A program made the position numbers and the translations under genes. DNA of 64,000 nucleotides from Torpedo marmorata (taxonomy: Eukaryota), in NCBI GenBank assembly GCA_977017645.1, contig OZ360220.1, forward strand, positions 259,036,001 to 259,100,000, read 5' to 3'. The notes under the pieces were generated by a model. It did not search any database, was not told the origin of the DNA, and saw nothing but the letters and a program-made list of their open reading frames with translations. This document shows, in pieces, positions 1,951 through 62,805 of the stretch. The first letter of the stretch is position 1. The number at the start of each line of letters is the position of its first letter.

Positions 1951-2317
1951 GTGATGGAATTGGTTGAAAGGATAAAGGTGTGTGTTTGAAGAAGATGCCT
2001 TTTCACAAGTCCACACACTATTGCTGAAGCTTGCGAATTGAATATACTGTATACAAATTGAGTCTGCAAATGTCACTGAGTTCAAAGACCCCACAGTATT
2101 AGTTCCCTTGAACAGGTGGAGAAAAATCAAGATGGAGAGAGAATCTGGAAAACACTGTCAATTAAGATTCTGTGCAACAACAAAAAAACACTTGGAACAA
2201 TTGCTCCCTTTATATCCTTAACAATTTCCTTCCAGCTGATGTTTGCAAGGAACTTGCTTGGAATGAAATCTTTCACTGAGCTCATACACAAATTGATGTT
2301 TATTCTTATAATACAAC

Positions 2318-4029
2318 TTGATTAACAAGGACACGCGATGCATGTGGAAGGGCATTCAAGATATCACCAACCACAAGACTACACCATCTGACTGTGCTGG
2401 TGATGCCTCCCTCCCAGATGCACTGAACAACTTCTACGCACGTTTTGAGGCAAAAAATGATGTAGTGGCAAAGAAGACAACCCCTCCTCCAAATGATCAG
2501 GTGCTGTGTTTCACAGTGGCCGATGTGAGGAGAGTGTTAAGCAAGGTTAACCCACGGAAAGCTGCTGGTCCAGATAACATTCCCGGCAGAGTGCTCAGGG
2601 GATGTGCGGCCCAGCTGGCTGATGTTCTCACCAACATCTTTAACATCTCCCTGAGCAGTGCCATGGTTCCAACGTGCTTCAAAGCCGCTACCATCATCCC
2701 CGTGCCGAAGAGGTCGATGGTGTCCTGCCACAATGACTACCGCCCTGTCGCACTCACATCTACTGTCATGAAGTGCTTCGAGAGGCTCGTCATGGGGCAC
2801 ATCAAGCTTCTGCTGCCCCCCTCACTGGACTCCTTGCAGTTTGCATATAGATCAAACCGCTCCACAGATGATGCCATCATTACCACCCTCCATCTAGCCC
2901 TCACCCACCTGGAAAATAAGGACGCGTATGTTCGAATGTTGTTTATTGACTTCAGCTCGGCATTCAACATGATCATACCTCAGAACCTGATAGGGAGGTT
3001 GAGCGGGCTGGGCCTAAACGACACCCTTTGTAATTGGATTCTAGACTTCCTGACGGGAAGACCTCAGGCAGTCCGGATTGGAAGCAGCACTTCCAAGGTC
3101 ATTACATTGAGCACGGGGGCTCCCCAGGGCTGTGTGCTTAGTCTATTGCTGTTCACTCATGACTGTGCAGCAAAACGCAGCTCGAATCATATCATCAAGT
3201 TCGCTGATGATACGACCGTGGTGGGCCTTATCAGCAAGAACGATGAGTCAGCATACAGAGATGAGGTGCAGTCGCTAATGGAATGGTGCGGAGCCAACAA
3301 GCTGCATCTGAATGTAAATAAAACAAAAGAGTTGGTTGTCGACTTCAGAAGGGCCTGAGGGGATCATTCTCCATTGACCATGGACGGCTCTACCGTTGAG
3401 GTCGTAAAGAGTACCAAGTTTCTTGGAGTGCACTTGGCGGAGAGTCTCAGCTGGTCCCTCAACACCAGTTCCATAGTCAAGAAAGCCCAGCAGCGTCTTT
3501 ACTTCCTGCGAAGGCTGAGGAAAGTTCATCTTCCACCCCCTTTCCTTACTACATTCTACAGGGGATGTATTGAGAGTATTCTGAGCAATTGCATCACCGC
3601 TTGGTTTGGAAACTGTACCATCTCGGACCGAAAGACCCTGCAGAGGATAGTGGGGTCAGTGGAGAAAATTATTGGTGTCTCTCTCCCCACCATGACGGAC
3701 ATCTACAACACATGGTGAATGAGGAAGGCTAAAAACATTGTGAAGGGCTTCTCACACCCCTTTGGTAAACGTTTTTCCCTTTTGCCATCTGGAAGGAGGT
3801 ACCGAAGCACTCGGGCTCGTACGTCCAGACTGTGCAACAGTTTTTTCCCCCAAGCCATCAGGCTCCTCAATTCCTAGATATATATGTGTATTAGCATGTT
3901 ATAGTTTTTTTTTATTGTATAATGATATTTATGTACATCTGCCCATGGTCCTGGAGAAACGCTATCTCGTCTTACTGTGTATATGGTAATGAACTACAAA
4001 TAAAGTTGACTTGACTTGACTTGACTTGA
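2318..4029 (+). mobile_element. 5'-truncated Rex1/Babar-clade non-LTR retrotransposon (RT interrupted by stop codons)
   Basis: ORFs 2318-3358 and 3374-3718 contain [46 protein letters not shown] and KKAQQRLYFLRRL; the 3' tail is AATAAAGTT(GACTT)n. Confidence 0.9.
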
Positions 4030-8710: not shown

Positions 8711-8966
8711 TGTGGTAAACCACTGTTTGTACATATCATGTAGTCTGCTGTCTGTATCATGTAGTCTGCTGTCTGTCCCGGTGCCTCCTCTCCCCTCCCT
8801 TGGGTGTCCAGGTAATCCCTCCCCCTTTCTCACCCGAATAAAGGCCTTTGTGCCACCGCTCCGCCCATAGATCTGCAGGTCGACTGTAGGTCTGTTTAAT
8901 GTCAATAAAAGCCTATGGTTCGTCTCCCACTCATAGTCTCTTGAGTGCTAATTGATAGGTATATCA
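8711..8966 (+). repeat. 5' LTR of Gypsy A (256 bp)
   Basis: TGTGGTAAAC...GTATATCA; matches the 3' LTR except for a 21-bp duplication and a 10-bp deletion. Confidence 0.95.
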
Positions 8967-8989
8967 ATTTTATTGACATTTTAAAAGCA

Positions 8990-11900
8990 ATGGAAAGCGC
9001 CCTCCGACCGGACCGACTGGACATCGACCCTTTAGCTCCTGATGCTGGTAACGCGTTCGAACACTGGCTACGCTGCCTCCGGTCATTCTCAGCAGCGATC
9101 AAGGCAGAAAGCGAGGAGCAGAAACTGGAGGTCCTCGTATCCAGGGTAAGCCCTCGGCTGTATTCTACTATTTGGAAATGTGAAACGTACACCGAGGCGA
9201 TGGAGGCACTGAAAAAGATCTACGTAACCCCTGTTAATGAGGTCTATGCGAGGTACAGACTATCGTTGCGAAAACAGCGGGCCGGGGAGTCGATAGTGGA
9301 CTTCGTCAGGGACATCCAGTCCCTAGTGCGAGCGTGCGCCTGTAAAGCGCTGACCGAGGAAGAACACGTTGATCTGCTGGAGAGGGACACCTTTATCATG
9401 GGGATGAGGTCGGTATATGTATGCCAGCGGCTGCTGGAGCACTCCGACCTCGATCTCCGTACCGTGGTCGCGATGGCTCGCACGCTGGAGTCCGCACTGC
9501 AGAACTCCGATGCTATGCAGACGCGCGACCCCCAGCCTGCCGCGTGGACCGCCCCGTCCCCCAGCCCCAGCGATCTAACTGTGGCCGCTGTGGCCCGTGA
9601 CCCCACTGTTGCCGCCGTTGCCCGCGACCCGATCGCTACCGACACTACGCTCACCGCCGCAGCTGTTAATTGCGAACCCGAGAAGTGCTACTTCTGCGGG
9701 CTCGACAAGCATCCGAGGAAACGCTGCCCGGCCCGCGATGCGACTTGTTCCAACTGCGGCAAGAAAGGCCACTACGCGAAGGCCTGCCGCTCCAAGCCGC
9801 GCGCGGGCCCGAGTAGTGCCGCGTGCGAGAGATGGGAGCGGCCATCTTACAGACTGGCACTTCCGGCGCCGACCGCGTGTGAGGAATGGAAGCGGCCATC
9901 TTTTATGCTGGCACTTCCGGCGCCGCCATCTCATAACAGTACTTCAGTACTTCCTGCACTTCCGGCGCCGCCATTTTGTAACGAGAGCACCAGCGACATG
10001 TGCAACCCACGGGAGCGGCCATTTTTAACGATCACAGATCAAGACGACTACACCCTGACTTTGGCATCCATCGCCCTCGACCAGAACGTTCCCCACCAGC
10101 TGGCATGATCCATGATGGACATACTGGTCGAGGGACACAAGATCACGTGCTTGTTCGATACTGGCAGCACTGAGAGCTTTATCCACCCGGATACTGTTCA
10201 ACGCTGTGGCCTAACGATCGTACCGGTAAGCCAGAGGGTGGCCATGGCGTCCGGGTCCCACACAACAGACATCCGGGGGGCGTGTGTGGCGAACATTGTG
10301 GTACAAGGGACAGAGTACCGGCAATTTTCCTTGTTTGTGATGAACCGTTTGTGTGCGCCGGTGTTACTGGGTTTGGATTTTCAGAGTCATTTGCGGAGTG
10401 TAACAATGTGGTATGACGGTCCTCACCCTGCGATCACTGTGGCCAACCACCAGTTTCTGGATAACACGCCCGAAACCACCTGTGTCTCTCCACCCTTAAG
10501 ATCTCGCCTCCGTCGTTGTTTGCGAACCTGACCCTGGACTGTAGGCCTGTGGCAACCAAAAGCAGGCGTTACAGTGCCGGGGACAGAGCATTTATCAAGA
10601 CGGAGGTACAGAGATTACTACATGAAGGGATTATAGAAAAGAGTAATAGTCCCTGGAGAGCCCAGGTGGTTGTGGTAAAAGGGGCCAAGTGCAGAATGGT
10701 GGTGGACTACAGTCAAACCATCAACAGATTTACGCTGCTGGACGCATATCCGCTACCACGGATAGCGGAGATAGTGAACCAAATTGCCCAATACCGGCTG
10801 TTCTCCACCATTGATTTGAAATCGGCATATCATCAGCTCCCTATCCATCGGGAGGACCGTTCATACACCGCATTTGGTGCAGATGGCAGGCTGTTCCAAT
10901 TCCTGCGCCTTCCGTTTGGTGTCACTAATGGTGTTTCTGTTTTTCAGCGGGAGATGGACAGGATTGTGGACCATTATAAACTTAAAGCCACTTTCCCATA
11001 TCTTGACGACATTACCATCTGTGGTTATGATCGTCAAGACCATGATAACAACCTCCGGAAGTTCCTACAGGCGGCCAAAGCCCTAAACCTCACGTACAAC
11101 AAAGAAAAGTGCGTATTTGGTACCACTCGCCTTGCTATTCTGGGGTATGTGGTTGAGAACGGGGTAATTGGACCAGACCCCGAACGCATGCGGCCCCTGC
11201 TGGAACTTCCGCTCCCCACCAACCCCAGAGCCCTTAAACGATGCCTCGGATTCTTTTCCTATTATGCGCAATGGGTCCCAAATTATGCGGACAAGGCCCG
11301 ACCCCTTGTGAAATCCACTGCATTTCCCCTTGCTTCGGAGGCACGTAAGGCATTCGACCTTATAAAAGGGGACATTGCGCGAGCAACAATGCACGCGGTG
11401 GATGAAGAGACACCTTTCCAGGTGGAGAGTGACGCATCGGACTTCGCGCTGGCTGCTACCCTCAACCAGGCGGGAAGGCCGGTGGCATTTTTCTCTCGAA
11501 CCCTCCAGGGCCCCGAAATTCAGCACTCAGCGGTGGAGAAGGAAGCCCAGGCCATAGTGGAAGCCATCAGGCACTGGAGGCACTATCTCGCCGGTAAGCA
11601 TTTTACCCTGCTGACAGATCAACGCTCTGTGGCATTCATGTTCAACAATCAGCAGCGGGGTAAGATCAAAAATGACAAGATCATGAGGTGGAGAATAGAG
11701 CTCTCCACCTACAACTACGACATCATGTACCGGCCCGGGAAGCTCAATGAGCCCTCCGATGCTCTATCCCGGGGATCGTGCGCCAGTGTGCAGATCGACC
11801 GATTACACGCCCTACATGACGACCTATGCCACCCAGGAATTTCCAGGCTCTTTCACTTTGTGAAGTCACAGAACCTGCCATACTCCCTGGAAGAGGTCAG

Positions 11901-12921
11901 GACAATGATCAGCAGTTGCCGGGTTTGCGCGGAGTGCAAACCCCAGTTCTACCGCCGCGATAAGGCACAGCTGGTCAAAGCCACTCGCCCCTTTGAACGT
12001 CTCAGCATTGACTTCAAGGGGCCCCTTCCCTCCACGAACCGCAATGTGTACTTTCTGAACATAATTGACGAGTACTCGCGGTTCCCCTTTGCCATTCCCT
12101 GCCCCGACACTTCGGCTGCCTCAACCATAAAAGCTCTTCGCCAGGTATTTACGCTGTTCGGCTTCCCGAACTACATTCATAGCGACCGGGGATCAGCTTT
12201 TATGAGTGAGGAGCTGCGCCAGTACCTGCTGGCCTGGGGCATCGCCACTAGTAGGACCACCGGATACAACCCCCGAGGTAATGGACAGGTGGAAAGGGAG
12301 AACGCCACTGTCTGGAAGGCGGCGCTCCTGGCTCTCAAGGCCAGGGGACTGCCGTTCTCCCGCTGGCAAGAGGTTCTCCCCGAAGCCCTCCATTCGATAC
12401 GGTCCTTACTGTGCACGGCCACAAATGTAACACCTCACGAACGACTTTTCTCCTTCTCCAGGAGGTCGAACACCGGAACCACCCTGCCTGCCTGGCTGAC
12501 GTCTCCGGGACCGGTGCGGCTCCGCAACCACCTTCGGAGCAGCAAATATGAGCCCGCGGTCCAGAGGGTGCAGTTAGCGCACGCTAACCCGCAGTACGCC
12601 TATGTGGTCTTCCCGGATGGGAGAGAGGACACGGTCTCAATTCGGGACCTGGCGCCCGCGGGAGCGCTGGAAGAAACTCTCGACGGGCAAGACCACTCGC
12701 TGCGGCCCCTCACTATTCCCTTTTCTACCCCGTCAGACCCGGCACCCTCGACAGAACCTACACCACAAAAAGCCAGGCAGGAGGAGACAATCCTGCCATC
12801 TCCCCCAGGACCACAGCAGGAGGCGACTGCCTTGCCATCTTCCCCTGCACCACAACCCGCACCCAGGGCACTGCGCAGGTCACAAAGGCGAGCCAAACCA
12901 CCGGATCGCCTTGACCTGTGA
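8990..12921 (+). pseudogene. Gypsy A gag-pol with one nonsense codon (10106-10108) and one frameshift (~10484)
   Basis: Double CCHC knuckle CYFCGLDKHPRKRC/CSNCGKKGHYAKAC, protease LFDTGS, RT YLDD, RNase H SDAS...LLTDQ, integrase HHCC and D-D-E; no chromodomain. Confidence 0.92.
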
Positions 12922-25998: not shown

Positions 25999-27948
25999 TC
26001 AGCAAAGTGGTCCCCAATCTACGATGTATAGAAAGCCACAAAGGGAACACCGGATGCAGTAAATAAGTTCTCTGGATGTACAAGTGAAGTGTAGTTTCAC
26101 TTGGAAGGCCTGTTTGGGGCCCTGGACCGTGGTGAGGGGGGAGGTGTGGGCGCAGGTGTTGCACCTCCTGCGGGCACAGGGGAAGGTTCCGGGGGTGCGA
26201 TGGGTGGGGAGGGATGAGTGCACGAGTGAATCGCGGAGGGAGCGGTCCCTACGGAAGGCCGAGAGGGGAGGAGAAGGAAAAATGTGTCTGGTGGTGGGAT
26301 CCTGTAGTAAGTGCCGGAAATTCCGGTGGATAATGTGTTGGATGCGGAGGCTGGTGGGGTGGTAGGTGAGGATGAGGGGGATTCTATGTTTGTTGCGTCT
26401 GGGGGCAGAGGGGGCCAGGGCAGATGAGTGGGAAATGGAGGAGATGCGGGTGAGGGCTGAGTTGATGGTGGTGGAGGGGAAGCCACGTTTGTGGAAAAAG
26501 GCAGACATTTCAGAAGATCTGGAGTGGAACACCTCATCTTGGGAACAGATGCGGCGGAGGCGGAGAAATTGAGAGAAGGGGATGGAGTCCTTGCAGGGGA
26601 CAGGGTGTGAGGATGTGTAGTCAAGATAGTTGTGGGAGTTGGAGGGTTTGTAGTAAATGTCGGTGGAAAGCTTGTCTCCCGAGATGGAGACAGAGAGATC
26701 CAGGAAGGGGAGAGTGTTATCGGAGATGGACCAGGTGAGTTTGAGATCATGGTGAAAGTTGGATGCGAAGTGGATGAAGTTGACAAGCTCATCGCGGGTG
26801 CATGAGGCAGCCCCGATGTAGTTGTCGATATACCGGAGGAAGAGATGAGGGGTCTTGCCTGTGTAGGCTTGCAGCATGGATTGCTCCACAAAGCCCACAA
26901 ACAGGCAGGCGTAGCTGGGACCCATGCGGGTACCCATGGCTACTCCTTTGATTTGGAGGAAGTTGAAGGAGAAGTTATTGAGAGTAAGGACAAGTTCTGC
27001 CAGGCGGAGGAGGGTGGTGGTAGAGGGTGACTGGTCGGGTCTTTGGTCCAGGAAGAAGCGAAGTGCTTTCAGACCTTCTGTGTGGGGAATAGAGTTATAA
27101 AGGGATTGGACATCCATGGTGAAGATGATGCGGTCCGGTTCAGGGAATCTGAAGTCATTGAGGAGATGGAGGGCATGTGAGGTGTCGCGGATGTAGGTGG
27201 GGAGGGATTGGACCAGGGGAGAAAAGATGGAGTCAAGGTAAGATGAAACTAGTTCGGTGGGGCAGGAGCAGGCAGAAACAATGGGTCTGCCCGGATGGTT
27301 GGGTTTGTGTATCTTGGGTAGAAGGTAGAAACGGGCAGTGCGGGGGTGGGGGAGAATGAGGTTGGTGGCCTTGGAGGGGAGGTGACCGTAGGTGATGAGG
27401 TCGGAGATGGTGTTGGAGACAGTGGCTTGATGTGCTGAGGTGGGGTCCTGTGGGAGGGGTCGGTAGGAAGAGGTGTCTGAGAGTTGTCGACTGGCCTCGG
27501 CAAGGTAGAGGTCAGTGCACCAGACCACAACCGCACCGCCCTTGTCTGCGGGTTTGATGGTGTGGTTAGGATTGTTGCGGAGAGAGTGGAGGGCAGAGCG
27601 TTCTGAGGAGGTGAGGTTGGAATACGAGAGGGGGGTGGTGAAGTTAAGACGGTTGATGTCTTGGCGGCAGTTGGAAATAAAAAGGTCCAGAGAGGGCAGC
27701 TGGCCAGAGCGAGGTGTCCAGGAAGAGGAAGAAGGCTTGAAGCGGGAGAAAGGGTCTTGGGTGGGGGGTGGAGAATCACGGTCATGGAAGTGAGCACGGA
27801 GGCGGAGGCGACGGAAGAAGAGTTCGGCATCATGGCGTGCGTGGAACTCGTTGAGGTGTTGGCGGAGGGGGACAAAGGTGAGGCCTCTACTGAGGATGGA
27901 GCGCTCCCTCTCAGAGAGGGGAAGGTCGGAGGGGATAGTAAAAACCAA
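25999..27948 (-). pseudogene. Penelope reverse transcriptase-GIY-YIG ORF (defective)
   Basis: IKPADKGG, FYLLPKIHK, PGRPIVS, MDVQSLY, GVAMGTRMGPSYA; catalytic RYIDD appears as RYIDN; GIY-YIG region LIYCIRC..CGFLYI is broken by a deletion and frameshift near 26025. Confidence 0.9.
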
Positions 27949-28427
27949 GCAGGGGTTAGAGTGGGGATCGGTGTTGTGGAGGGTGTTGGGGGGAGGGGTA
28001 GGGTTGGGGTGGTCAGAGGGGGGAGGTGGAGAGTGGGGGAGGTTGGAGGGTGGGGGAGGGGGGGTCGGAGGGGGGAGGTGAGGAGTAGGGGAGGTAGGAG
28101 GGTGGGAGAGGGGGGTAGGGAGGGTAGCCAGAGAGAGGGGGGGTGATGGAGGGAAGGGAAGGGATGAGGTCTAAGGGTGGGGGAGGAGAGTGGGGCAGAG
28201 AGGGGGAGATGTGGGTGGAGTAGGGAGAGGTGCAGGAGGAGAGGGAAGGAGTAGTGAGGGGGATAGGTAAGTGGGATCTTGTTGCAAGATGAGGACTCCA
28301 GTGGCAGTCAGCGTGGGAGGCTCCAGCAGGTAACAGTCTGTGTCGGGAGTCGGCGGTGGAGGCATCGGGAACTCTGGTGAGTAGAGGCTCGGGGTCTTAC
28401 GTCTTAATTTTTCTCCCGACATTTTTC

Positions 28428-35577: not shown

Positions 35578-36270
35578 TAAGTTCAGTTCAAGTTTACCGT
35601 TCACCGATTGTACTGTACAAGTATAACCCAACGAAACAGCGTTCTCCGGCCCTCGGTGGAAAAACATGTATATACACAACCAGACATATCACACATACAG
35701 ACAAGTGATATTTATGCAGTACATATATACATATATTAAAATAAATATATATTGTTTAATAAATAGTAGTCTCGGAGGGATAGTATGAGCAGTTCATTCA
35801 GTCGTTCACCAGTCTCACTGCCCGTGGGAAGAAGCAGTTTCTCAGCCTGGTGGTTCTGGCTCTGATACTCCTGTATCTCTTTCCCGACAGGAGTAAGCTG
35901 AAAGATGCTGCATCCAAGGTGGTAGGGGTCCTCAACGATTTTGTGCACCCTCTTCAAACAATGATCCCGGTAGATCACATCGATGGGAGGGGGGGGGTGG
36001 GGAAGACCCCAGTGATCCCCACTGCCACTCTTAAGGTCTTGTGGATTAACCTCCTATCCAAGATTCTGCAGCAACTGTACCCCACTGTGATGCAGCCGGC
36101 CAGGATGCTCTTGATGGAGCTCCTGTAGAAAGTTGACAGGATGGTGGCCGGTAGCCTTGCCCACCTCAGTTTCCTCAGGAAGTGCAGTCGCCATTGCACC
36201 TTCCTGACAAGTGACTCCAGGATAGGTCACTTGTTAAGTGAACTCTGAAAAACTTGGTGCTCTCTACAGT
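35578..36270 (-). mobile_element. Rex1/Babar 3' fragment
   Basis: Minus ORF RLHFLRKLR...STFYRSSIKSILAGCITV and a CTTGAACTGAACTT tail. Confidence 0.8.
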
Positions 36271-36547
36271 ACTGAATTATTTTTCTGGGTCCAAAGTTTA
36301 AGAAACGATGATCTTTAATCAATAAAATGATTTGAACAATGGGAGGAGAAGGAATGTTTACTCTGTTCTCACTCAGAGCATAATTTTTTTTTAAATGAAA
36401 AACATTGACCATGTCACCAAATTGTTTTGTACCATTGCACAAGTTCAGTCATTATTCTTTTGAAAGTACCGGTAACTTTAAAAAGGGATTCAGACAGAAA
36501 CTTGAAACAGAAAACTTTGAGAGACGAATGGACTGGATGGCTCATTA

Positions 36548-36745
36548 GGGGTGGGAGCAGAGTGGCAGAACTGGTGGAGTTGCTGCCTCACAGCTCTCAT
36601 GAGGTCGGTTCAAACCTGACTTCCAATTCTGTCTCCGTGGAGTTTGCACGTCCTCGCTGTGACTGCTTGGGTTCCCTCTGGGTGCTCTGATTTCCTCCCA
36701 TATCCCAAAGACGTGCAGCTTGTTCAGTTAATTTGCCACTGCGCT
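36548..36745 (+). mobile_element. Older V-SINE
   Basis: GCTGCCTCACAGC...GGTTCAAACCTGAC...GTGGAGTTTGCACGT...GGGTGCTCTGATTTCCTCCCA. Confidence 0.75.
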
Positions 36746-37068
36746 TCCACAAGGGCACTATTTTGGTTAGACATTAACATACTGATACAGCATGACCACA
36801 CTTTTTGGGGAAAGGAGAATATTGAATTATGCATCCCTGTTGCAGCTGACGTTTGAAAATAAATGATTTCTGGCCAGCTCTGTCCACCATCAACAGGATT
36901 CAAGAGTTGTATTACGTGAATTTATGGGTTTCGAAATTTTAGAACACATTTAATTGTTTGTATCAATATATTTCGCATAACGTAAGCTTTTTAAGAAACT
37001 GAATTGTTATTTTGTTGAGCATTTTGGGGTCACTTTCTAATTAGTTGTGTGTTCCTTACTTTATGCAG

Positions 37069-37187
37069 ACAAAGTAGAGCTGCCAAACACAGCCAATGTA
37101 GAAGTTGAAGTAACACCTCCGAAGGATCCTCCCGCAGCGGTGCAAAACGGAAGCCTGCCCAATGGAGCAGAGGTGGCAGTGGGCCAG
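37069..37187 (+). CDS. SLC24A2: SLC24A2 internal exon, 119 nt
   Basis: atgcag|...CAG|gtctgt; (D)KVELPNTANVEVEVTPPKDPPAAVQNGSLPNGAEVAVGQ is homologous to NCKX2 EKIELPNS...VQNG; phase 1-0 fits the flanking exons. Confidence 0.88.
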
Positions 37188-37863
37188 GTCTGTGTACTTA
37201 TGTCCGCGCAGAGGTGGCAGTGTACCAGGTCTGTGTACGTGTGTCCGCGCAGAGGTGGAAGTGGGCCAGGTCTGTCTAAGTATGTCCGCGCAGAGATGGC
37301 AGTGGGCCAGGCCTGTGTACGTGTGTCCGTGCAGAGGTTGCAGTGGGCCAGGTTTGTGTACACGTGTCCACGCAGAGGTTGCAGTGGGCCAGGCCTGTGT
37401 ATGTGTATCCGCGCAGAAGTGGCAGTGGGCCAGGTCTGTGTACACATGTCTGCGCAGAGGTTGCAGTGGGCCAGGTCTGTGTACGTGTGTCTGCACAGAG
37501 GTTGCAGTGGGCCAGGTCTGTGTACGTGTGTCTGCACAGAGGTTGCAGTGGGCCAGGTCTGTGTATGTGTGTTTGCGCAGAGGTGAGAGTGGGCCAGGTC
37601 TGTGTACGTGCGTCCGCGCAGAGGTAACAGTGGGCCAGGTCTGTGTATGTGCGCCCACGCAGAGGTTGCAGTGGGCCAGGTCTGTGTACGTGCGTCCGCG
37701 CAGAGGTAACAGTGGGCCAGGTCTGTGTATGTGCGCCCACGCAGAGGTTGCAGTGGGCCAGGTCTGTGTACGTGCGTCTGCGCAGAGGTGACAGTGGGCC
37801 ATGTCTGTGTACGTGCGTCCGCGCAGAGGTTGCAGTGGGCCAGGTCTGTGTGCACGTGTCCGT
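37167..37863 (+). repeat. Minisatellite, 17 x 41 bp, containing the exon/intron junction
   Basis: Consensus GCAGAGGTTGCAGTGGGCCAG|GTCTGTGTACGTGTGTCCGC; units start at 37167 + 41n. Confidence 0.97.
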
Positions 37864-38078
37864 GAAAAGTTGGTTGGCTCTGATGGAAAGGCAAATATTA
37901 TGTTAGTCGTCCACCATCAGAGATGTGAACTGTTGGCAGCTTAATCCCATAATTATGTTTGAATTGGTATCTTTGCTAGTTTGCTTATTAAACAATTACT
38001 TTTTCATTGCTAAATATTTCCAAATTTTCTATTATTTCTGTGTCAAACAAAAGGTTTGGAAGTTACATTATAATACAA

Positions 38079-39146
38079 AAGTAAATCACGAAATTCTGTA
38101 GACACCGTGGTTGAAGTAAAAACACAAATGCTGGAGAAGCTCAGCAGGTCAAACAGTGTCTTTTATGTAGCAAAGGTAGAAATACATAACCGACGTTTCG
38201 GGCTTGAGCTCTTCATCAAAGTATGAGAAAATGCCAGCAGGCGTCTGAACAACAGATGATGGGGGGAAGGGGGGTGGCAAAGGCAAGAGATGATAGGTGG
38301 AGAAAGGAGGGAGGGGACAGCAGCAAAGAGGGGGAGGAGGGATGGCTGGGTGGGTGGAAAAACTGGAAGGACAGGGAAGGGGGGAGGGGAAGGAAAAGGC
38401 AAGCAGGTTTAGTGGAAAGCAGAAAAGTCAATGTTAATGCCATCTGGCTGGAGAGTGCCCAGACGGAAAATAAGGTGATGTTTCTCCAATTTGCGGGTAG
38501 TCTGGGTGGGATAGTACATAAGGCCAAGGACAGACATGTGAGTGTGGGAGTGTGACTCGGAATTGAAATGGTTGGCTACTGGGAGGTCGCTGTTGTTGTG
38601 GACGGAGAGGAGGTGTTCAGCGAAGCGGATGGAGAGGAGGTGCTCAGCGAAGCGGATGGAGAGGAGGTACTCAGCGACCTCCCAGTAGCCAACCATTTCA
38701 ATTCCGAGTCACACTCCCACAGTCACATGTCTGTCCATGGCCTTATGTACTATCCCACCCAGACCACCCGCAAATTGGAGGAACAACACCTTATTTTCCG
38801 TCTGGGCACTCTCCAGCCAGATGGCATTAACATTGACTTTTCTGCTTTCCACTAAACCTGCTTGCCTTTTCCTTCCCCTCCCCCCTTCCCTATCCTTCCA
38901 GTTTTTCCACCCACCCAGCCATCCCTCATCCCCCTCTTTGCTGCTGTCCCCTCCCTCCTTTCTCCACCTATCACCTCCTGCCTTTGCCACCCCCCCCCCC
39001 TTCACTATTTTGTTCGGATGCCTGCCGGCATTTTCTCATACTTTGATGAAGGGCTCAAGCCCGAAACGTCGGTTATGTATTTCTACCTTTGCTACATAAA
39101 AGACACTGTTTGACCTGCTGAGCTTCTCCAGCATTTGTGTTTTTAC
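38079..39146. mobile_element. Foldback (palindromic) Penelope-derived insertion with 15-bp TSD
   Basis: Arms 38116-38592 and 38672-39146 are near-perfect reverse complements; TSD TACATTATAATACAA at 38064-38078 and 39147-39161. Confidence 0.93.
39037..39077 (+). ncRNA. Minimal hammerhead motif, sense to SLC24A2 (antisense copy at 38185-38225)
   Basis: CATACT-TTGATGA-AGGGCTCAAGCCC-GAAACGTC-GGTTATG. Confidence 0.7.
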
Positions 39147-39577
39147 TACATTATAATACAATATTGAGGCAAATATATGACTGAGACTGGTCAATGAAAG
39201 GTTTAATACATCTATCCTGTCAAGGTATGAGCATTCAGGCCTGAAACGTTGGTTACCCTTTTCTACCTACAGATGCTGCCTGACATGTTGATTCTCCACC
39301 ACCTTTGTGTATTGCACTACAATCCCAGCGTCTGCAGACTTTTCTATTTAGCTTTATTAATGTGGTACGCTGTATCTTCCTTTCACAAATACTCAGGATA
39401 TCAATTCTCTGAGAACTGTTGATCATAGCTATTCATTCAACTGAGTTAAACTATTAGAATCACTTAAATTACTCCACTAGAATCCTCCCATTTTGTCTGA
39501 TTGTTGCGAAGTCTGAACATTTCTTGGACAATCAGTGTAGTCCAAATGTATTTCTCAAGTTGACTGACAATATCAAC

Positions 39578-44346: not shown

Positions 44347-47300
44347 TGATGCACCATCAATAACTCCGAAAGACTAGAAGTTATGTAGGAACTGACAGGC
44401 TTTTATTTACATCGGAATGGATGCACATTCCTGGTGGCCGTCTGTCCTGGACTGGGGAGGGAGCTGTGGCACAATGGCCTTTATTCAGGCGTCTGTGGGA
44501 GGAGCCATAGGCACAGTCAGCAAGGGGCGTGTCCAGACGACTACAAACATATATACAGTGGTTTACCACATTCACCCCTCTTTTTTAAAAAGAGTCCTGC
44601 AGGGTGAAGTGAATTAAAGTTCTCACAGATTGAGTCTTTCAGGTGGTCTGGTCTGCCGCTGTGACCGTCATAGTACCGGCTGCGGCGCAGCTGTTGCATC
44701 CAGTCCTGTTTGGACCACCTGTGTATTGTTGTCGGCTCTGACTTGGTGGATGCGTGGCGGCGAATCTGGCATGCCATCCCCAGGGGCTGGGGTCACTTGC
44801 CATGGCAACAGTGCATTGCAGGTGGTGGTAGGTGGGGGGGGGGGGCGCAGGGTGGTCGGCAATGGTGTCAGGGACTCCTGAGGGCGCGAGGTCCCGAACG
44901 GAGACCATGTCCTCCCACCCATCAGGGTACGTCACGTAGGCGTATTGGGGGTTGACGTGGAGGAGATGGACCCTTTCGACCAGTGGGTTGTGTTTATGGC
45001 TCCTCGCATGCCTCCGGAGTAGAACCGGCCCTGGGGACATCAGCCAGGACGGCAGCGTGGTCCCTGAAGCGGACTTCCTAGGAAAGGAAAACATTCTCTC
45101 ATGTGGATTGGCATTGGTGGCGGTACATAAGAATGATCTAATTGAGTGGAGTACATCGGGGAGGACCTCTTGCCAGTGGGAGACTGGAAGACCTCTAGAC
45201 TTTAGGGCTAGAAGGGTGGCCTTCCAGACGGTAGCGTTCTCCCTCTCCACCTGCCCATTCCCTCGGGGATTGTAACTGGTGGTCCTGCTTGTGGCGATGC
45301 CACTGGCCAGGGTACTGACGCAGCTCGTCACTCATAAAAGAGGACCCCCAGTCGCTATGAATATAGCAGGGGTACCCAAACAGAGTGAAGAGGTTGCGCA
45401 GAGTCTTGATGACTGTGGCAGTGGTCATGTCCGGGCAGGAGACGGCAATAATGTTGAGGAAGTACACATTGCAGTCAGAGGAGGGGAGGGGTCCCTTGAA
45501 ATCGATGCTCAGGCATTCAAAGCGGCGGGTGTCTTTTATCAAGTGCGCTCTGTCTGGTTGATAGAAGTCCAGTTTGCACTCCGCACAGATCTGGCAGTTC
45601 CTGGTCATGGTCCTGACCTCCTCGATGGAGTAAGGTAGGTTGCGGCCTTTTATGAAGTGGAAGAACCTGGTGACCCCGGGGTGGCAGAGGTCGCTGTGGA
45701 GGGCTTGTAAGCGGTCTATTTGTGCGCTGGCACATGTTCCGCGGGATAGGGCATCTGGGGGCTCATTGAATTTTCCGGGCCGGTACAAGATATCGTTATT
45801 GTAGGTGGAAAGTTTGATTCTCCACCTCAGTATCTTGTCATTTTTGATTTTGCCTCGCTGTTGGTTGTTAAACATAAAAGCAACTGAACGCTGGTCAGTT
45901 AGCAAGGTGAATCGTTTTCCGATGAGGTAGTGCCTCCAGTGCCGTACCACCTCGACAATGGCTTGGGCCTCCTTCTTGACAGAGGAGTGTCGGATTTCTG
46001 GGCCCTGGAGGGTGCGGGAAAAGAAAGCTACGGGTCTGCCCGCTTGGTTGAGGGTGGCGGCCAGGGCGAAGTTGGACGCATCGCTCTCCACCTGGAACGG
46101 GGTGGATTCGTCCACAGCGTGCATCGCAGCTTTGGCGATGCGGCTGAAGTCCGCCCGGGCCTCTGACGTCAGGGGAAAAGAGGTGGATTTGACGAGGGGG
46201 CGGGCCTTGTCCACATAATTGGGGACCCACTGGGCATAACACGAGAAAAAGCCCAGGCACCTTTTCAGGGCTTTGAGGCTGTGGGGGAGGGGGAGTTACA
46301 ACAGGGAGCGCATGCGGTCTGGATCTGGGCCAGTTACTGCGTCCTGTACGACGCAGCCAAGGATAGCAAGGCGGGTTGTGCCAAAGACGCATTTATCCTT
46401 ATTATAAGTAAGGTTGAGGAGTTTGGCGGTCTGTAGGAATTTTTGGAGGTTGGCTTCATGATCCTGTAGGTCATGGCCGCAAATGGTAATGTTATCCAGG
46501 TAAAGGAATGTGGCCTGCAGCCCGTGCTGGTCGACCATTCGGTCCATCTCCCGCTGGAAGACCGAGACCACATTGGTGACGACAAAGGGAACCCTCAGAA
46601 AATGATAGAGGCGGCCATCAGCCTCGAAGGCAGTGTATTGGCAGTCCTCCTGGCAGATGGGGAGTTAGTGGTATGCCGACTTTAAATCGATGGTAGAGAG
46701 TACCCGGTATTAGGCAATTTGGTTCACCATGTCGGCTATGCGGGGGAGAGGGTACGCGTCCAGCTGCGTATATCGGTTGATGGTCTGACTATAATCAATG
46801 ACCATCCTGTTTTTTTCCCCATTCTTTACCACCACCACTTGGGCTCTCCAGGGGCTAGTGCTGGCTTCAGTAATCCCCTCCTTCAATATCTGCTGCACCT
46901 CTGACCTGATAAAGGCCCTGTCCCCGGCACTGTACCACCTACTTTTGGTGGCAACGGGTTTACAGTCAGGGGTAAGGTTAGTGAACAGCGGTGGGGGGGT
47001 GATCCCGAGGGTAGAAAGGCCGCAGGTCGCGCGCGGTGGGTGATCTGTGGGTTGCTGTCTGGACGCGATGGGAGGGGAGGCCGGGGAGCTTCTGTGGGTG
47101 AATTGCGGTGGGCGGTTTACAAACTGTGGATTACAGACGGTGAGGGGGGGATGTGGCCCATCGTACTCCAACGTCACGCTTTTAAGGTGACATTGAAAGT
47201 CTAGCCCCAGTAGCACGTAAGTGCAGAGCTGTGACATAACGAGTAGTTTAAAAAGTTTATACTCTGTGCCCAGCACAGTCAGGGTCACTACGCAGTAACC

Positions 47301-48773
47301 GCGAATCTCTGCCATGTGGGACTTGGAAACCTTGGAGACTTTGTGGCTTACCGGCATTACCGTGAGGCGGTAACGCTGTACCTTGTCGGGGTGTATAAAG
47401 CTCTCCATGCTCCCACTATCGAACAGGCAGCTCATCTTGTGGCCGTCCACCTCAACGTCCATCATCGATCTGGCCAGTTGATGGGAGATCCCTTGATCCA
47501 GCGTGATGGAGGCCAGTACTGAGCCGCTGTCGGGTTCCGTAGAATTGATGCGGTGTTCGGTCCCAAGATGGCGCCGAAGAAGCGATCGGGTTTTCGGTCC
47601 CAAGATGGCGCCATCCAAGATGGCGGCCCCCATGGTTCGCACGCGGCGCTGCTGAGTTGGGAAGATGGTGGCGCCCAAGATGGCAGCACCCCTTGCTCGC
47701 ATGCAGCGCTGCTGGGTCTTGAGGGCGGTTTGGACTTGCAGACTTTCGCGTAGTGCCCCTTCTTCCCGCAGCTGGAGCAGACCGCGTCTTTTGCCCGGCA
47801 GCGTTTTCTGGGATGCTTGTCCAGGCCGCAGAAGTAGCACTTCAGCTGATCGCGGAGTATAGCGGCCGTAGTCGAGTCGCTGACGGGATGCGGCGGTGGC
47901 GGTGTTCCACAGGCTTGTGGTCCTCCCGCGTCCCAAGATGGCAGCGCCCTCGGTAACCACGATGTGGCCACGTTATCGGCTGAGTACACGTCCATATTTT
48001 GGAGGGCCACTTCTAGCGTGCCTGCTAGGTCCACTGCCCTCTGCAAATTATGCTCACCCTGCTCCAACAGTCTGCCGTATGTAATTGGATCGGATGCCAG
48101 CGACATAGGCATCTCTAATGAGGTCCTCTGTGTTCGCCACGGCCATTACGGCCTTGCAGCCACAGGCCCGTCCGAGGGTTCGCAGGGCCCGTAGGTACTC
48201 GGCGCTCGATTCCCCGGGTCGCTGTTTTCGGGTAGCCAGGAGATGCCTAGTTTAAACCTCATTTACCTTCTTCAGGTCCTGGCGTCTCAGCATGTCCATG
48301 GCCTCCTGATAAGATTCGGCGTCCCTGATCATAGAATATACCCGGGGCCCGACCCAGGAATGTAGTACTTGCAGTTTGTCTTCCTCAGATTGGACGACAG
48401 TAGCGGAGGCCCTCAAGAATGCCTCAAAACAACGCAGACGGTGTTCAAAACTGTTGGATGCCTCAGGTGATTGAGGATCGAGTTCTAACTTCTCTGGTTT
48501 CAGGTACTGATCCATTATCGAAAGCGATGTAAATAAAATTGATGCACCATCAATAACTCCGAAAGACTAGAAGTTATGCAGGAACTGATAGGCTTTTATT
48601 TACATCGGAATGGATGCACACTCCTGCTGGTCGTCTGTCCTGGACTGGGTAGGGAGCTGTGGCACAATGGCCTTTATTCAGGGGTCTATGGGAGGATCCA
48701 CAGGTACAGTTAGTAAGGGGCGTGTCCAGATGACTACAAATATATATACAGTTATATACAGTGGTTTACCACA
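44347..48773 (-). mobile_element. Full-length Gypsy LTR retrotransposon B (same lineage as A, more decayed)
   Basis: LTRs at 48540-48773 (5') and 44347-44570 (3') differ by ~15 substitutions and a 10-bp duplication; CTCCA TSD; PPT; gag ATG at 48515; frameshifted gag-pol homologous to A, with RT YLDD appearing as YLDN. Confidence 0.95.
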
Positions 48774-49454: not shown

Positions 49455-52400
49455 TCAAAAAGAAATGATATTTATCACGTAAGTGATTTTTTCAAGTGGT
49501 ATACATGAACGCAATTCAGCATGCCATCTTTCTAACCCTAAATCTACATCCGATTTCCATGTAATGGCAATACATTTCTTAGAAACAGCTAAAGCACTAG
49601 TTCCTTTAATATCTCCAAACAAAAATATCATAGGATCCATTGGGAGTGTAATTCTTAATACTTTATCTAAAAACTATTTAACCTTCAACCAAAAATCATA
49701 CACTTTTGGACAAAACCATGTAGAATGTACAAAAGAACCTTCCTCACTATTACATCTAAAATATAAACCAGATAATGTCAGATTAAATTTCTTTTGTCTT
49801 TTAGGTGTTAAAAATAATTGATGGAAAAAATTATAGTTGCACCAGTCTATATCTAACATTAATAATCTTCGTCATACTATGTTTACATAATTTTTTTCAG
49901 TGTTCTTCATCTATTGTTACACTCAAATCTGTTTCCCAATTTAATCTTGATTTGTGAATTCCTGGTTTAGGCAATTTCCTCTGTAACAATCTATACATTT
50001 GAGAAATAAATTTAGAAACACCTCCATTAGTAACTAATAATTCCAATTCAGTCTGCCTTGGTAAAATCAAACTATGGCCCAACCTTTCAACTAAAAATGC
50101 TCTGATTTGATAGTAAGCAAAGATTGTATTATCTGCTACATTAAACTTATCTTTCATTCTTTGAAACGTAATAAATTTACCAGCTTCAAAACAATCATTT
50201 ATTTCCTTAATTCACTTTTGGAACCAAATTTTAAATAATTGATTATCAACAGTAAATGGGATAAGTTTATTTTGGTACAGAGGCATTCTTCGAGAAATTG
50301 ACCTTTCGCTCCTATTTCTCTATCCACTCTATTCCATATTTCTAACAAATGTCTAAAAATAGGAGAATTTTTCCCTCTAATTAATAATAATTTAGAATTC
50401 CATTTATAAATGACTTCTTCTTTCAAATCCTCTCCTATATTATTTAATTCTATTCTAATCCAAGCAGAGAGTTTCCCTAAATCAAACAATTCGTTAATAA
50501 ATTTTAGTTATGCTGCTTTATAGTAATATTGAAAATTAGGAAGCTGTAGACCACCCATTTCATAATTCCAGGTAAATTTCTCCATACCTACTCTAGCCAA
50601 CTTTCCTTTCCACAAAAATTTCCTAATAATTAAATATAAATCTTTAAAAAATTTCTGAGGAATTTCATAAGGAATTGATTGAAAAAGATATTGAATTCTC
50701 AGAAAAACATTCATTTTAATACAATTTACCCTTCCCATTAGAGTTATAGGTAAATCCTTCCAACTCTCCAGATTTTTTTTATATTCCCAAATAATGGTAA
50801 ATAGTTTAATTTATACAAATTGGTTAATTTTGTATCAATCTTTATTCCCAAATATTTAATTCCTTCCTTTGACCATTTAAATTGTGTAATTTCTTTACAT
50901 TTACTATAATCCCCTTGTGTTAAAGGCATAATTTCACTTTTATCCGAATTAATCTTATAACCAGATATTTCCCCATATTCTTTCAATAAAACAGACAATT
51001 GCATTAAAGAATTAATAGGTTTTGTCATATATATCAATACGTCATCTGCAAATAAACTAATTTTGTGTTCTTCATTACCAACTTTAATACCTGCAATCTT
51101 AATATCTTGTCTAATTAATTCAGCTAAAGGTTCTATTGCTAAAATAAACAATGCTGGCGATAAAGGACAACCTTGTCTAGTAGACCTAGTTAAGGAAAAT
51201 TTTGAAGATATTTGTCCATTTGTGACTACTCTAGCAGAAGGTTCTTTATATATAGTTTTAATCCAATTAATAAATGTATTTCCAAAACCGAATTTTTCCA
51301 GTACCTTAAATAAATAATTCCACTCTAATCTATCAAAAGCCTTTTCGGCATCTAATGTTAATACTAATGCCAGCTCCTCTCTTTTTTGTGCCACGTTTAT
51401 TAAACTAATTAATCTAGCGATATTATCTTTTGTATATCTGTTCTTAATAAAGCCTGCTTGATCTACATGAACTAAATCTGGTAAATACTTAGCCACTCTA
51501 TTTGCTAAAATTTTCGCCATTATTTTATAGTCCACATTTAACAACGATATTGGTCTATATGATTCTGTTTTCCACAAGTGTCTATCTTTTTTCGGTATAA
51601 CTGTTATTATTGTGTTTGAGAAGGTTTCCGGTAGTGAATGAGTTTCCGTTATTTGTTTTAACACTTCCATATAAGGAGGTATCAATAAGTCCTTAAACTT
51701 CTTATAAAATTCTGATGGAAAACCATCCTCCCCCGGAGATTTCCCACTTGTTAACTTCCCTCATCGTAAATGGTGAATCTAAAGATTCTTTACTAAGTTT
51801 ATTTAACCTAGGCATCTTAATTTTGGATAAAAATTTGTTAATTTTAGAATCATCTTTATCGACTTGAGATGTATATAAATTCAAATAAAAATCCTTGAAA
51901 GAATCATTTATTTCTCGCGGTTTATAAGTTATTTTCTTAGAATTCTTTTTTGTAGCCGTTATAGTTCTAGAGGTTTGTTCTTTCTTTAATTGCCAGGCTA
52001 AAACTTTATGAGCTCTTTCTCCCAATTCATAATACCTTTGCTTGCTTCTTTCAATGAGTTTTTCCAATTTATATGTTTGTAACGTATTATAATATAATTT
52101 TTTCTCAATTAAATTTTTCTTCTTTTCTTCTGATCTCTTTTTTTGTAAATCCTTCTCCAAAAACTCAATCTCCTTCTCCAAATTATCCAATTCCTGAATA
52201 TTTTCCTTCTTAATTTTTGCTGAATAACTTATTATCTGACGTCTTAAATAAGCTTTCAAAGCATCCCAAATAATAAATTTATTCTCAATGGAATCAGAGT
52301 TAATCTATAAGAATTCTTGGATTTCTCTTCTTATATATTTACAAAAATCCACTCTTTTTAGTAAAGAAGAATTAAACCTCCATCTATATATAATTTTTTC

Positions 52401-53124
52401 TTTTTCTGGAATTATGCATGACATTAATAAAGGCAAATGGTCAGAAATTAATCTTGCCTTATATTGTGCTTGAGTCACCCTATCTTGTAATTGTGATGAC
52501 AGTAAAAATATGTCTATTCTAGAATAAGAATCATGTCTAGAAGAATAAAAAGAATAGTCTTTTTCTCTCGGATTCAACTTCCTCCAAATATCAATTAAAT
52601 TCAAATCTTTCATCATAGTAAGAATTCTTTTAGCAGTTTTAGTTCTAATGATTGATTTAGATGTTTTATCCATTGCTGGGTCTAAACAACAATTAAAATC
52701 TCCACCAATTAAAATATTATCGTTTGCTTCTGACAAATGCATAAAGGAATCTTGAATAAATTGTTCATCTTGTGTATTTGGCACGTATATATTCATGAGT
52801 CCACATTTCTGAATATATCTGACAGTTTATTAAGACATATCTTCCTGACACATCAGTAACCACCGATTGTATTTTAAAGGGTAACTTCTTATTAATTAGT
52901 ATAGCAACACCTTTAGCCTTAGAATTAAATGAAGATGCTACTACTTGACCAACCCATTCTCTTTTCAACTTCTGATGTTCTAACTCAATCAAATGTGTCT
53001 CTTGTAATAAAGCTATGTCTACGTTTAGCTTTTTGATGTATGCTAAAGTTTTCTTCCTTTTAATCAGATTATTGAGCCCATTTATATTAATACTGACTAC
53101 ATTTATTAATTTACTGTCCGCCAT
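49455..53124 (-). pseudogene. L1 ORF2 (APE endonuclease-RT), multiple frameshifts and stops
   Basis: SININGLN, LLQETH, GGDFN, SRID, ISDH; YRPISLLNVDYK, LDAEKAFD, RQGCPLSP, LFADD. Confidence 0.92.
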
Positions 53125-53411
53125 TGCTGATATTTAATAACTCTCTCTCCATCGGATCCGCCGGCTCCCCCTTCCACATTTGTAATCTATTTGTCATCTC
53201 CTTAGAAAGAATAAGAGAAAAGGAAATAAAAAGAGAATAGAGAACTAAAGAACCCACTATATATAATACTGGTATATTTACACCAGTACTACCACCCTCC
53301 ATTGCTCGGGAAGTGGCCCTCGCCACTAAAATGATGCACGACTAAGTACGAAGAAGACAAAAAGTCCACCTCCCCCCAAACAGATTTCCAACAAAATTTG
53401 TTATCGTTTCT

Positions 53412-54800
53412 TCATCCAGCAACTTCAAGATCTCTATTAACTTGATCCTCATCGATTACGACCCCATTTTCTTGTTCCAAAACTCTTGGTGAGAGCAATT
53501 CTTGAGCCGGTAAGATGACTTGATATCGCCCTGAAAAATCTTGATCTTTCTTTAATTCCGGAAGTAAATTTGCATGCTGTAGAGCCTCTTGAGGGTCAGT
53601 GAAGAAAAGTGACTGATTCTCTGCAGATTGAACTTTCAATATCGCAGGATATCTAAATGAAAATTTATATCCTTTACCCCACAAAACCGCTTTCGCCGGG
53701 TTAAATTCTTTCCGTTTTTTTATAATTACCGAACTCAAATCAGCATAAAAAAACATACTATTTTTATCGATTATCAACGGACCATGATGAATTCTTGCCT
53801 TCTGAACAGCCAATTTCAATATTTTTTCTTTATCCTGATATCTAAGGCACTAATTAGAATTGAACGTGGTCTTTGACCAGGATATGGTTTTCTCCTGCTA
53901 TCTCTATGAGCTCTATCCATTTCAAAGTCTGCGGAATCCAGTTTTGAAAAAATATTGTTGGATTTGTCCCTTCAAAATCTTCAGGCAGTCCCACAATTTT
54001 AACATTGTTTCTCCGACTCTGATTTTCCAATACATCTATTTTTTGTAAAAGTTCATTCCTTTGTAGCTCCCAACCTGTGAATGAATCTTCCACTTTATCC
54101 ACTCTATCCTTATAGTCCACCATTTCCTCGTAATGTTCCTTAACATTCTCTTCAATTTTTTGAACCCTCAGTAGTACTTTATCCACAATATTTGAATGCT
54201 TTTTCATATCTTGTTTAACAGCATTTATTTCTTCCTTTACCTCTTTAAATCCATGCTGCATACGTTGATTCAGTAATGAAACTTGTTTTGTTAATTTGTC
54301 CATAGCTTCAATAAGAGTCATTGATAATTCTTGTTTACCTTGAAGCATTGGAGCCTCCTCTTCTCCACTTATTTCTTCTTGCTCCTCTCCCTCCATCTCT
54401 TGCATTCCTCCTTCCAATTCTTGATATCTTTCTTCCTCTCTTCTCTTTTCTTCTGAATCTGTAGATGACGATAATTCCTGTTCAGCTTCATGGCAGTACA
54501 TATCTGACAGTTCGCGATCTTTATCGCGCATGCGCGTCATTCGCACATGCGCAAACGTTCCGCCGGAAGTTGTAGTCTTTTAACCTTTCTTCAAGCACCA
54601 GCGCCATTTTCCCCAGCTCCCCAGGAGGACGGCGCTGGTGCTGTAGTTACCTTCACCGTCCTCGTCTGCATCTTCCTCGGAGGGAGAGGAACTTGATCCC
54701 GAGGCTCCATCGTTAAGGTAGGCCAGTCTTCCTCCTGAATTAAACTCTCGTTAAACTCCGGTTTTTTTTACTTTTGTTCTTTCGTTTTCCTAGTAGACAT
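53412..54800 (-). pseudogene. L1 ORF1 (acidic region, coiled coil, Transposase_22-like RRM/CTD), disrupted
   Basis: LENQSRRNNVKIVGLPE, FYADLS...RKEF and FRYPAIL motifs; probable ATG at 54800. Confidence 0.85.
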
Positions 54801-60492: not shown

Positions 60493-60636
60493 GCTGAGGT
60501 GGCCATACAGAATGAAGATGAGGACCAGCCACTAAGCTTGGCCTGGCCAGATACAACACGTAAACGAATTATTTATCTAATTATACTGCCTATTATCCTT
60601 CCATTGTGGTTAACCTTACCTGACGTCAGGAAGAAG
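60493..60636 (+). CDS. SLC24A2: SLC24A2 internal exon, 144 nt (alternative in-frame start at 60511 possible)
   Basis: tactag|...|gtaagc; AEVAIQNEDEDQPLSLAWPDTTRKRIIYLIILPIILPLWLTLPDVRKK matches NCKX2 EEEDQPLSLAWP...PLWITLPDVRK. Confidence 0.93.
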
Positions 60637-62715: not shown

Positions 62716-62805
62716 AGTTCGCAGAAATATTTTGTAATTTCGTTCTTGGGGTCAATCACCTGGATTGCAGGCTTTTCCTATCTAATGGTCTGGTGGGCTC
62801 ACCAG
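62716..62805 (+). CDS. SLC24A2: SLC24A2 internal exon, 90 nt
   Basis: ttgcag|...|gtaagc; SSQKYFVISFLGSITWIAGFSYLMVWWAHQ. Confidence 0.96.

Follow-up and report, generated by a model that had tools for sequence, protein, structure and literature searches.

Which copy of a splice donor is used when the donor is repeated many times in tandem, and does such an array change the output of its gene? Both questions are raised by a 41-bp minisatellite in the ray Torpedo marmorata, which begins inside a coding exon and runs into the following intron within the 64,000-nt stretch of contig OZ360220.1 analyzed here (the window). The features concerned are collected in Table 1.

In order to identify the host gene, homologous proteins were aligned to the window by tblastn. 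NCKX2 proteins matched six exons in order, at about 4394, 17920 and 33330 and at 37069-37187, 60493-60636 and 62716-62805, which upholds the SLC24A2 identity proposed in a first-pass annotation of this DNA; the acceptor at 60493 given there was also correct, as judged by tblastn and acceptor context. The peptide of the exon that enters the array matched 24 proteins among 36 candidates, the sources being sharks, rays or chimaeras throughout. PF01699 is present in all 24, and 23 bear the name Na/K/Ca exchanger 2(-like); the assignment to NCKX2 as opposed to NCKX1 follows the names given by the source records. The best match among 27 proteins compared was an NCKX2-like protein of Narcine bancroftii, identical at 176 of 184 residues over five exons. 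Single-exon searches of Pfam and PDB gave nothing significant, and the gene identity came from the homologues. NCKX2 is described as the cone exchanger, and ray eye transcriptomes include its transcripts (PMC6170504). The central loop of the protein is reported to contain signals for localisation, trafficking and regulation, segments subject to alternative splicing, phosphorylation and a disulfide with a proposed inhibitory role (PMC9820825).

Three further observations concern the exons. The small exon at 17920-17971 matches a segment present in some NCKX2 isoforms and absent from others, as for an alternatively spliced loop exon. In all four Narcine isoforms the 37069 exon begins two residues later, without DK, and a second AG in the window, 6 nt into this exon (37069-37075), would have the same effect. 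The end of the exon, AEVAVGQ (37167-37187), resembles the start of the next, AEVAIQ (60493-60510); since this resemblance is common to sharks and rays, it predates the array.

Table 1. Positions of the exons, the array and its candidate donors in the window. A slash separates the exon and intron sides of a donor motif.
Feature	Coordinates	Strand	Basis or remark
SLC24A2/NCKX2 coding exon, 119 nt, central cytosolic loop region	37069..37187	+	74-95% identity to 24 named chondrichthyan NCKX2(-like) proteins; acceptor context
41-bp minisatellite, 17 units	37167..37863	+	Unit 1 straddles the exon/intron junction; TRF and unit table
Authentic donor CAG/GTCTGT, last exon base 37187	37185..37193	+	44/52 related isoforms end here; donor comparison
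Second GT, 6 nt 3' of the authentic donor	37191..37199	+	Would add Val-Cys; recurs in 16/17 units
16 downstream donor copies: 13 CAG/GT, 2 CAG/GC (units 4, 6), 1 CAT/GT (unit 16)	37208..37863	+	Unit table
Improved site GAG/GTGAGA, unit 11	37580..37588	+	Overlaps TGA 37584-37586; use would frameshift
Two-unit (82-bp) duplication, recent	37618..37781	+	Units 12+13 and 14+15 differ at 1/82 bases
3' flank, 7/10 bases as at the start of unit 1	37864..37873	+	Candidate seed of the first duplication or decayed partial unit; match noticed post hoc and equalled by 0.5% of intron 10-mers
Next exon, acceptor 60493	60493..60636	+	tblastn; donor comparison
Following coding exon	62716..62805	+	tblastn; gene runs on past the window

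TRF reported the array at 37167-37862 with 17.0 copies, 86% matches, 0% indels and a score of 965, the next-best of the 17 rows for the 64-kb window scoring 171. Each unit consists of the 21 terminal nucleotides of the exon and the 20 initial nucleotides of the intron, starting with GT, and the units are arranged head-to-tail; the 17 units of 41 bp described in the first-pass annotation were thus recovered by TRF and the unit table. The annotation had further stated that CAG/GTCTGT recurs every 41 nt and is mostly intact. The recurrence holds, but the count of 17 includes the real donor, CAG/GT is present in 14 of the 17 units and the exact CAG/GTCTGT in 13, unit 5 having CAG/GTTTGT. The GC dinucleotides that it noted in units 4 and 6, and the damaged unit 16 (CAT/GT), were seen again in the unit table. 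A GT is also found at unit position 7 in 16 of the 17 units, the exon itself included (37173). The extra donor-like sites listed in the annotation, AG/GTGAGA at 37583 and AG/GTAACA in units 12 and 14, are present, but they were not gained as described there, being improved versions of this shared GT. By U1-duplex energy, a crude proxy, the improved site of unit 11 scores -9.7 kcal/mol against -8.8 for the authentic donor. In addition, 16 of the 17 units have another GT, at +7 relative to the donor, which the annotation had not mentioned.

The array appears to be a product of ordinary minisatellite turnover. Sixteen of the 17 units are distinct, and 46 of the 62 differences from the consensus are transitions. 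All 6 possible CpG transitions were observed, as opposed to 13 of 35 transitions at the remaining columns (Fisher P=0.006), adjacent units are more alike (Mantel P=0.04), and 10 of the 14 private alleles lie in units 1-7. A germline minisatellite that is old at its 5' edge and has undergone recent turnover in its 3' part would show this pattern, and the 82-bp duplication of units 12+13 as 14+15 also suggests turnover, as seen in one haplotype. Copy number in tandem arrays can be mis-assembled, but an assembly or sequencing artefact is exceedingly unlikely here, as the CpG-biased substitutions, the absence of indels and the 16 distinct units argue against it, together with the excess of transitions, the likeness of neighbours and the absence of any N from the 64-kb window. 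The array is thus probably real DNA. An origin from a mobile element or RNA gene was rejected: comparison of the array with the rest of the window gave no similar sequence (best E 1.6), and Rfam gave no matches in 36000-39500.

Several other elements were observed in the window. LTR-retrotransposon-like copies, which we take to be such from their gag-, protease-, RT/RNase H- and integrase-like frames, lie at 8945-12921 (+), with an 818-codon open frame, and at 44639-48566 (-), in shorter pieces. Reverse-transcriptase-like open frames, presumably of the kind typical of non-LTR retroelements, were found at 25999-28170 (-), open for 723 codons, 2312-3718 (+) and 49900-54579 (-). Shortly 3' of the array (38208-39099), two similar G-rich segments lie inverted at 38216-38575 (-) and 38689-39099 (+), and between them is a 27-bp repeat of 2.9 copies (38600-38677).

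For the choice of donor, related isoforms were compared at the exon end. The comparison started from 59 named proteins (two unnamed records were left out), seven of which lacked the exon pattern, leaving 52. The exon ends at the equivalent of 37187 in 44 of these 52 shark, ray and chimaera isoforms, including all four from Narcine bancroftii; the 52 are mostly predicted RefSeq models from relatives that may lack the array; their junctions thus show the ancestral donor and not the behaviour of the array. On these alignments 37187 is clearly the ancestral donor. None of the 52 named, mostly predicted isoforms reads more than two residues into the intron. Four of six Rhinoraja isoforms carry a Val-Cys extension at the junction and the other two do not, which fits use of the +7 GT.

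The surroundings of the junction vary among relatives, with the Val-Cys extension in four isoforms and a shortening by four residues in four others. The models with Val-Cys are from Rhinoraja longicauda, which suggests that the tandem donor 6 nt downstream (37188-37199, GTCTGT-GT) is common to this skate and T. marmorata. The shorter exon end occurs in one isoform model each of Mustelus, Hypanus, Carcharodon and Mobula birostris, and may reflect an upstream donor or a genomic change.

The authentic donor itself is non-consensus at +3/+4, and whereas the five other donors of the gene in the window all start with GTAA, it does not. Its U1 duplex of -8.8 kcal/mol is mid-range among these six (-6.6 to -11.0). 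Scored by U1-duplex energy alone, which is a crude measure of donor strength, 13 sites in the array equal or exceed the authentic donor, compared with 18 in the other 22.6 kb of the intron. On sequence alone the array copies are therefore credible donors, and position must decide the choice between them.

The consequences of using a downstream copy can be read from the frame. Six of the 16 copies (units 2, 3, 5, 6, 8 and 9) would shift the frame and lead to a stop at 60495 or 60533, which is 139 or 101 nt before the next junction. Seven (units 11-17) lie behind the TGA at 37584, and three, namely units 4 (GC), 7 and 10, are in frame and stop-free. Under the 50-55 nt rule, 13 of the 16 copies would yield targets of nonsense-mediated decay (NMD). 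The frame arithmetic of the first-pass annotation was sound: the exon frame is open to TGA 37584, the donors between 37433 and 37434 (unit 7) and between 37556 and 37557 (unit 10) would add 82 and 123 residues, and the first in-frame decoy (37311, unit 4, which would add 41 residues) is a GC copy. Its statement that the other donors frameshift applies to six copies; the remaining seven instead lie behind the TGA. Use of the in-frame GT copies in units 7 and 10 would require exons of 365 and 488 nt. A query of the exon plus read-through peptide had no match among 425 candidates of 94-300 aa, its 24 matches among 1349 longer candidates were all to the exon only (21-27% of the query), and the read-through peptide had no Pfam match above the cut-off. 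The array is thus not a coding (exonic) VNTR, the period of 41 not being frame-preserving and no protein with the repeat peptide having been found among the candidates searched.

The open frame and the positions of the GC copies are at chance level. As the consensus unit is free of stops in every frame on both strands, open frames are expected, and long ones were also found in the remaining frames of the array and on the opposite strand. When the unit order was shuffled in 20,000 trials, 132 or more codons of the exon frame remained open in 30% of them (P=0.30), and the location of two of the three damaged copies on in-frame units has a P of 0.21. The donor nine-mer is not exceptionally conserved, since 5 of the 41 windows of nine bases along the unit show the same invariance. 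Four tests for selection on the donors or the frame gave no significant signal, with low power from 17 related units. Purging of nearby donor copies was considered, as units 2-6 are all changed within -6..+7 compared with 1 of the 11 later units (rank-sum P=0.011, for a window chosen after inspection among six tried; the strict -3..+6 gives P=0.22). It was rejected as array polarity, given the excess of private alleles in units 1-7, and the changes near the donor in units 2 and 5 leave U1 pairing no weaker. Hiding of the copies by RNA structure was likewise rejected, as folding was no better than in shuffles (z 0.56) and predicted accessibility does not set unit 1 apart (0.20; range 0.02-0.66).

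Minisatellites that repeat a donor are known in human F7, IFI6 (6-16), CBS, LMNB2 and PDGFA (PMC1557585). The ray array is a minisatellite-sized head-to-tail repeat with its first unit across a real exon/intron boundary and the donor reiterated in the intron, and judged by this layout it is clearly a member of the same structural class. In the open-access literature searched, we found no report of this locus or of any example from fish.

A close parallel is the 37-bp VNTR in intron 7 of human F7. Unit 1 lies across the exon/intron boundary in both, the spacing is 37 nt in F7 and 41 nt in the ray, neither period is a multiple of 3, the exons measure 124 and 119 nt, and both donors are non-consensus. 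The two differ in copy number (5-9 in F7, 17 in the ray), in the exon nucleotides per unit (4 and 21), in the copies themselves, which are identical in F7 but vary in the ray, and in being from a mammal and a ray; length polymorphism and first-site use are established for F7, whereas the ray array is known from its sequence. Borensztajn et al. (2006) studied 50 F7 constructs and describe the minisatellite copies as functional but silent (PMC1557585). According to their account, the first site of intron 7 is used exclusively and the most upstream intact site wins; minigenes with 1-6 and 8-12 copies showed no effect on site choice, which was also unchanged with downstream sites of greater strength (consensus value up to 91), competition being seen only at perfect consensus. 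In-frame pseudo-sites were neither favoured nor used, and distant sites gave exon skipping and not long exons (PMC1557585). The suggestion in the first-pass annotation that the locus is a natural test of first-donor choice is correct, but it is not new, as this was the rationale of the 2006 study.

The same source lists only the authentic site as used in F7, LMNB2 and PDGFA, and the first site plus two more in IFI6 and CBS (PMC1557585). The 31-bp VNTR in CBS intron 13 resembles the ray array in having 15-20 copies over the exon/intron border and variant copies, and differs in that two extra donors are in use; a substitution in its repeat 2 is reported to prevent multiple alternate splicing, whereas the donor core of unit 2 in the ray is intact. 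In IFI6 intron 2 the authentic donor is likewise followed by many copies (25), but the two nearest are constitutively used. LMNB2 (100 bp x 10-15) and PDGFA (81 bp x 16-18) are similar in copy number and layout, have longer units and use the authentic donor only (PMC1557585). For duplicated strong donors, Hodson et al. (2012) report that splicing moves to the downstream copy once the two lie more than about 30 nt apart, and does so almost wholly at 45 nt or more (PMC3413131). As the ray donor is non-consensus at +3/+4, like the imperfect site of F7, the behaviour of F7 may be the better guide. More generally, repeat length can alter splicing, as reported for 9,537 spl-TRs (PMC10078293) and the ABCA7 VNTR (PMC5954066); these are presented as population associations, and in the passages concerned they are not described as repeats of the donor itself.

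Taken together, the array is with good probability a near-neutral minisatellite, with 37187 as the dominant donor and at most a minor leak to nearby copies ending in NMD. It is probably a harmless repeat because the same layout occurs in several human genes where the first copy is mainly used. The array would be an ordinary GC-rich intronic minisatellite whose seeding across the junction happened by chance. A 41-bp stretch may have been duplicated, possibly when the exon sequence at 37167 mispaired by slippage with a similar 10-mer 41 nt further along; the array evidently then grew by duplication of single units and unit pairs and aged by CpG decay, its 5' copies being the least homogenised. 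The spliceosome would define the 119-nt exon from its acceptor and take the first donor, 37187, giving normal NCKX2, as the relatives and F7, LMNB2 and PDGFA suggest. By analogy with IFI6 and CBS, a certain amount of splicing may plausibly leak to the +7 GT or to the copies closest to the authentic donor; use of units 2 and 3 would shift the frame and lead to NMD. Such leak is allowed for by the distance of 41 nt between donors and by the presence of 21 exon bases in each unit. The array would be tolerated because it is nearly silent and not be kept for regulation.

It is unlikely that splicing at this locus is unproductive in a copy-number- or variant-dependent manner, with downstream copies taking a sizeable share, mostly to NMD, and array alleles tuning NCKX2 dosage. 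The premature stops predicted for 13 of the 16 downstream copies are consistent with it, as are the turnover seen in the recent 82-bp duplication and the downstream preference of strong duplicated donors (PMC3413131), and a 2001 paper reportedly ties the 31-bp CBS VNTR to reduced activity. However, copy number is described as having no effect in F7 (PMC1557585), donor positions in the array are not conserved in excess, and the nearest copy, unit 2, keeps an unchanged donor between -3 and +8, although a costly leak might have been expected to silence it. That the copies diversify the protein is highly improbable. In that case unit 7, unit 10 or the GC unit 4 would lengthen the cytosolic loop by 82, 123 or 41 residues rich in Val, Cys and Arg, with an effect on trafficking or redox control; the frame of 132 codons with 16 Cys and the regulatory features of the NCKX2 loop (PMC9820825) could be cited in favour. 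Such a frame is expected from the unit sequence alone (P=0.30), other frames and the opposite strand being open as well, and the 41-nt period is not a multiple of 3. The insert is present in none of the related proteins searched and has no Pfam match above the cut-off, and to make it the spliceosome would have to pass over several equal donors and accept exons of 365-488 nt. We also regard it as very unlikely that the array, by allele length, diverts a real share of NCKX2 splicing, whether to NMD or to Cys-rich loop-extended isoforms, as a non-mammalian exception to the first-donor rule; the case for this is the 21 exon bases in each copy and a spacing of 41 nt near the threshold of downstream preference. 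The VNTR-tunable switch suggested in the first-pass annotation found no support, as the open frame and GC positions are at chance level and no related protein with read-through was found.

If the array is a near-neutral minisatellite, as we consider probable, it adds an example from a cartilaginous fish to a class described from human genes, and a conserved neuronal and cone gene tolerates 13 intact extra donors. With a spacing near the transition at 30-45 nt and copies that differ in sequence, so that reads can be assigned to units, the array is a natural substrate for comparing the first-site rule of F7 with the downstream-site rule of duplicated strong donors. Should allele length tune NCKX2 output, this would be of interest to specialists in splicing and in fish neurobiology, and if the array did divert a real share of splicing, it would represent a repeat-tuned calcium-exchanger dial in a gene of excitable tissue.
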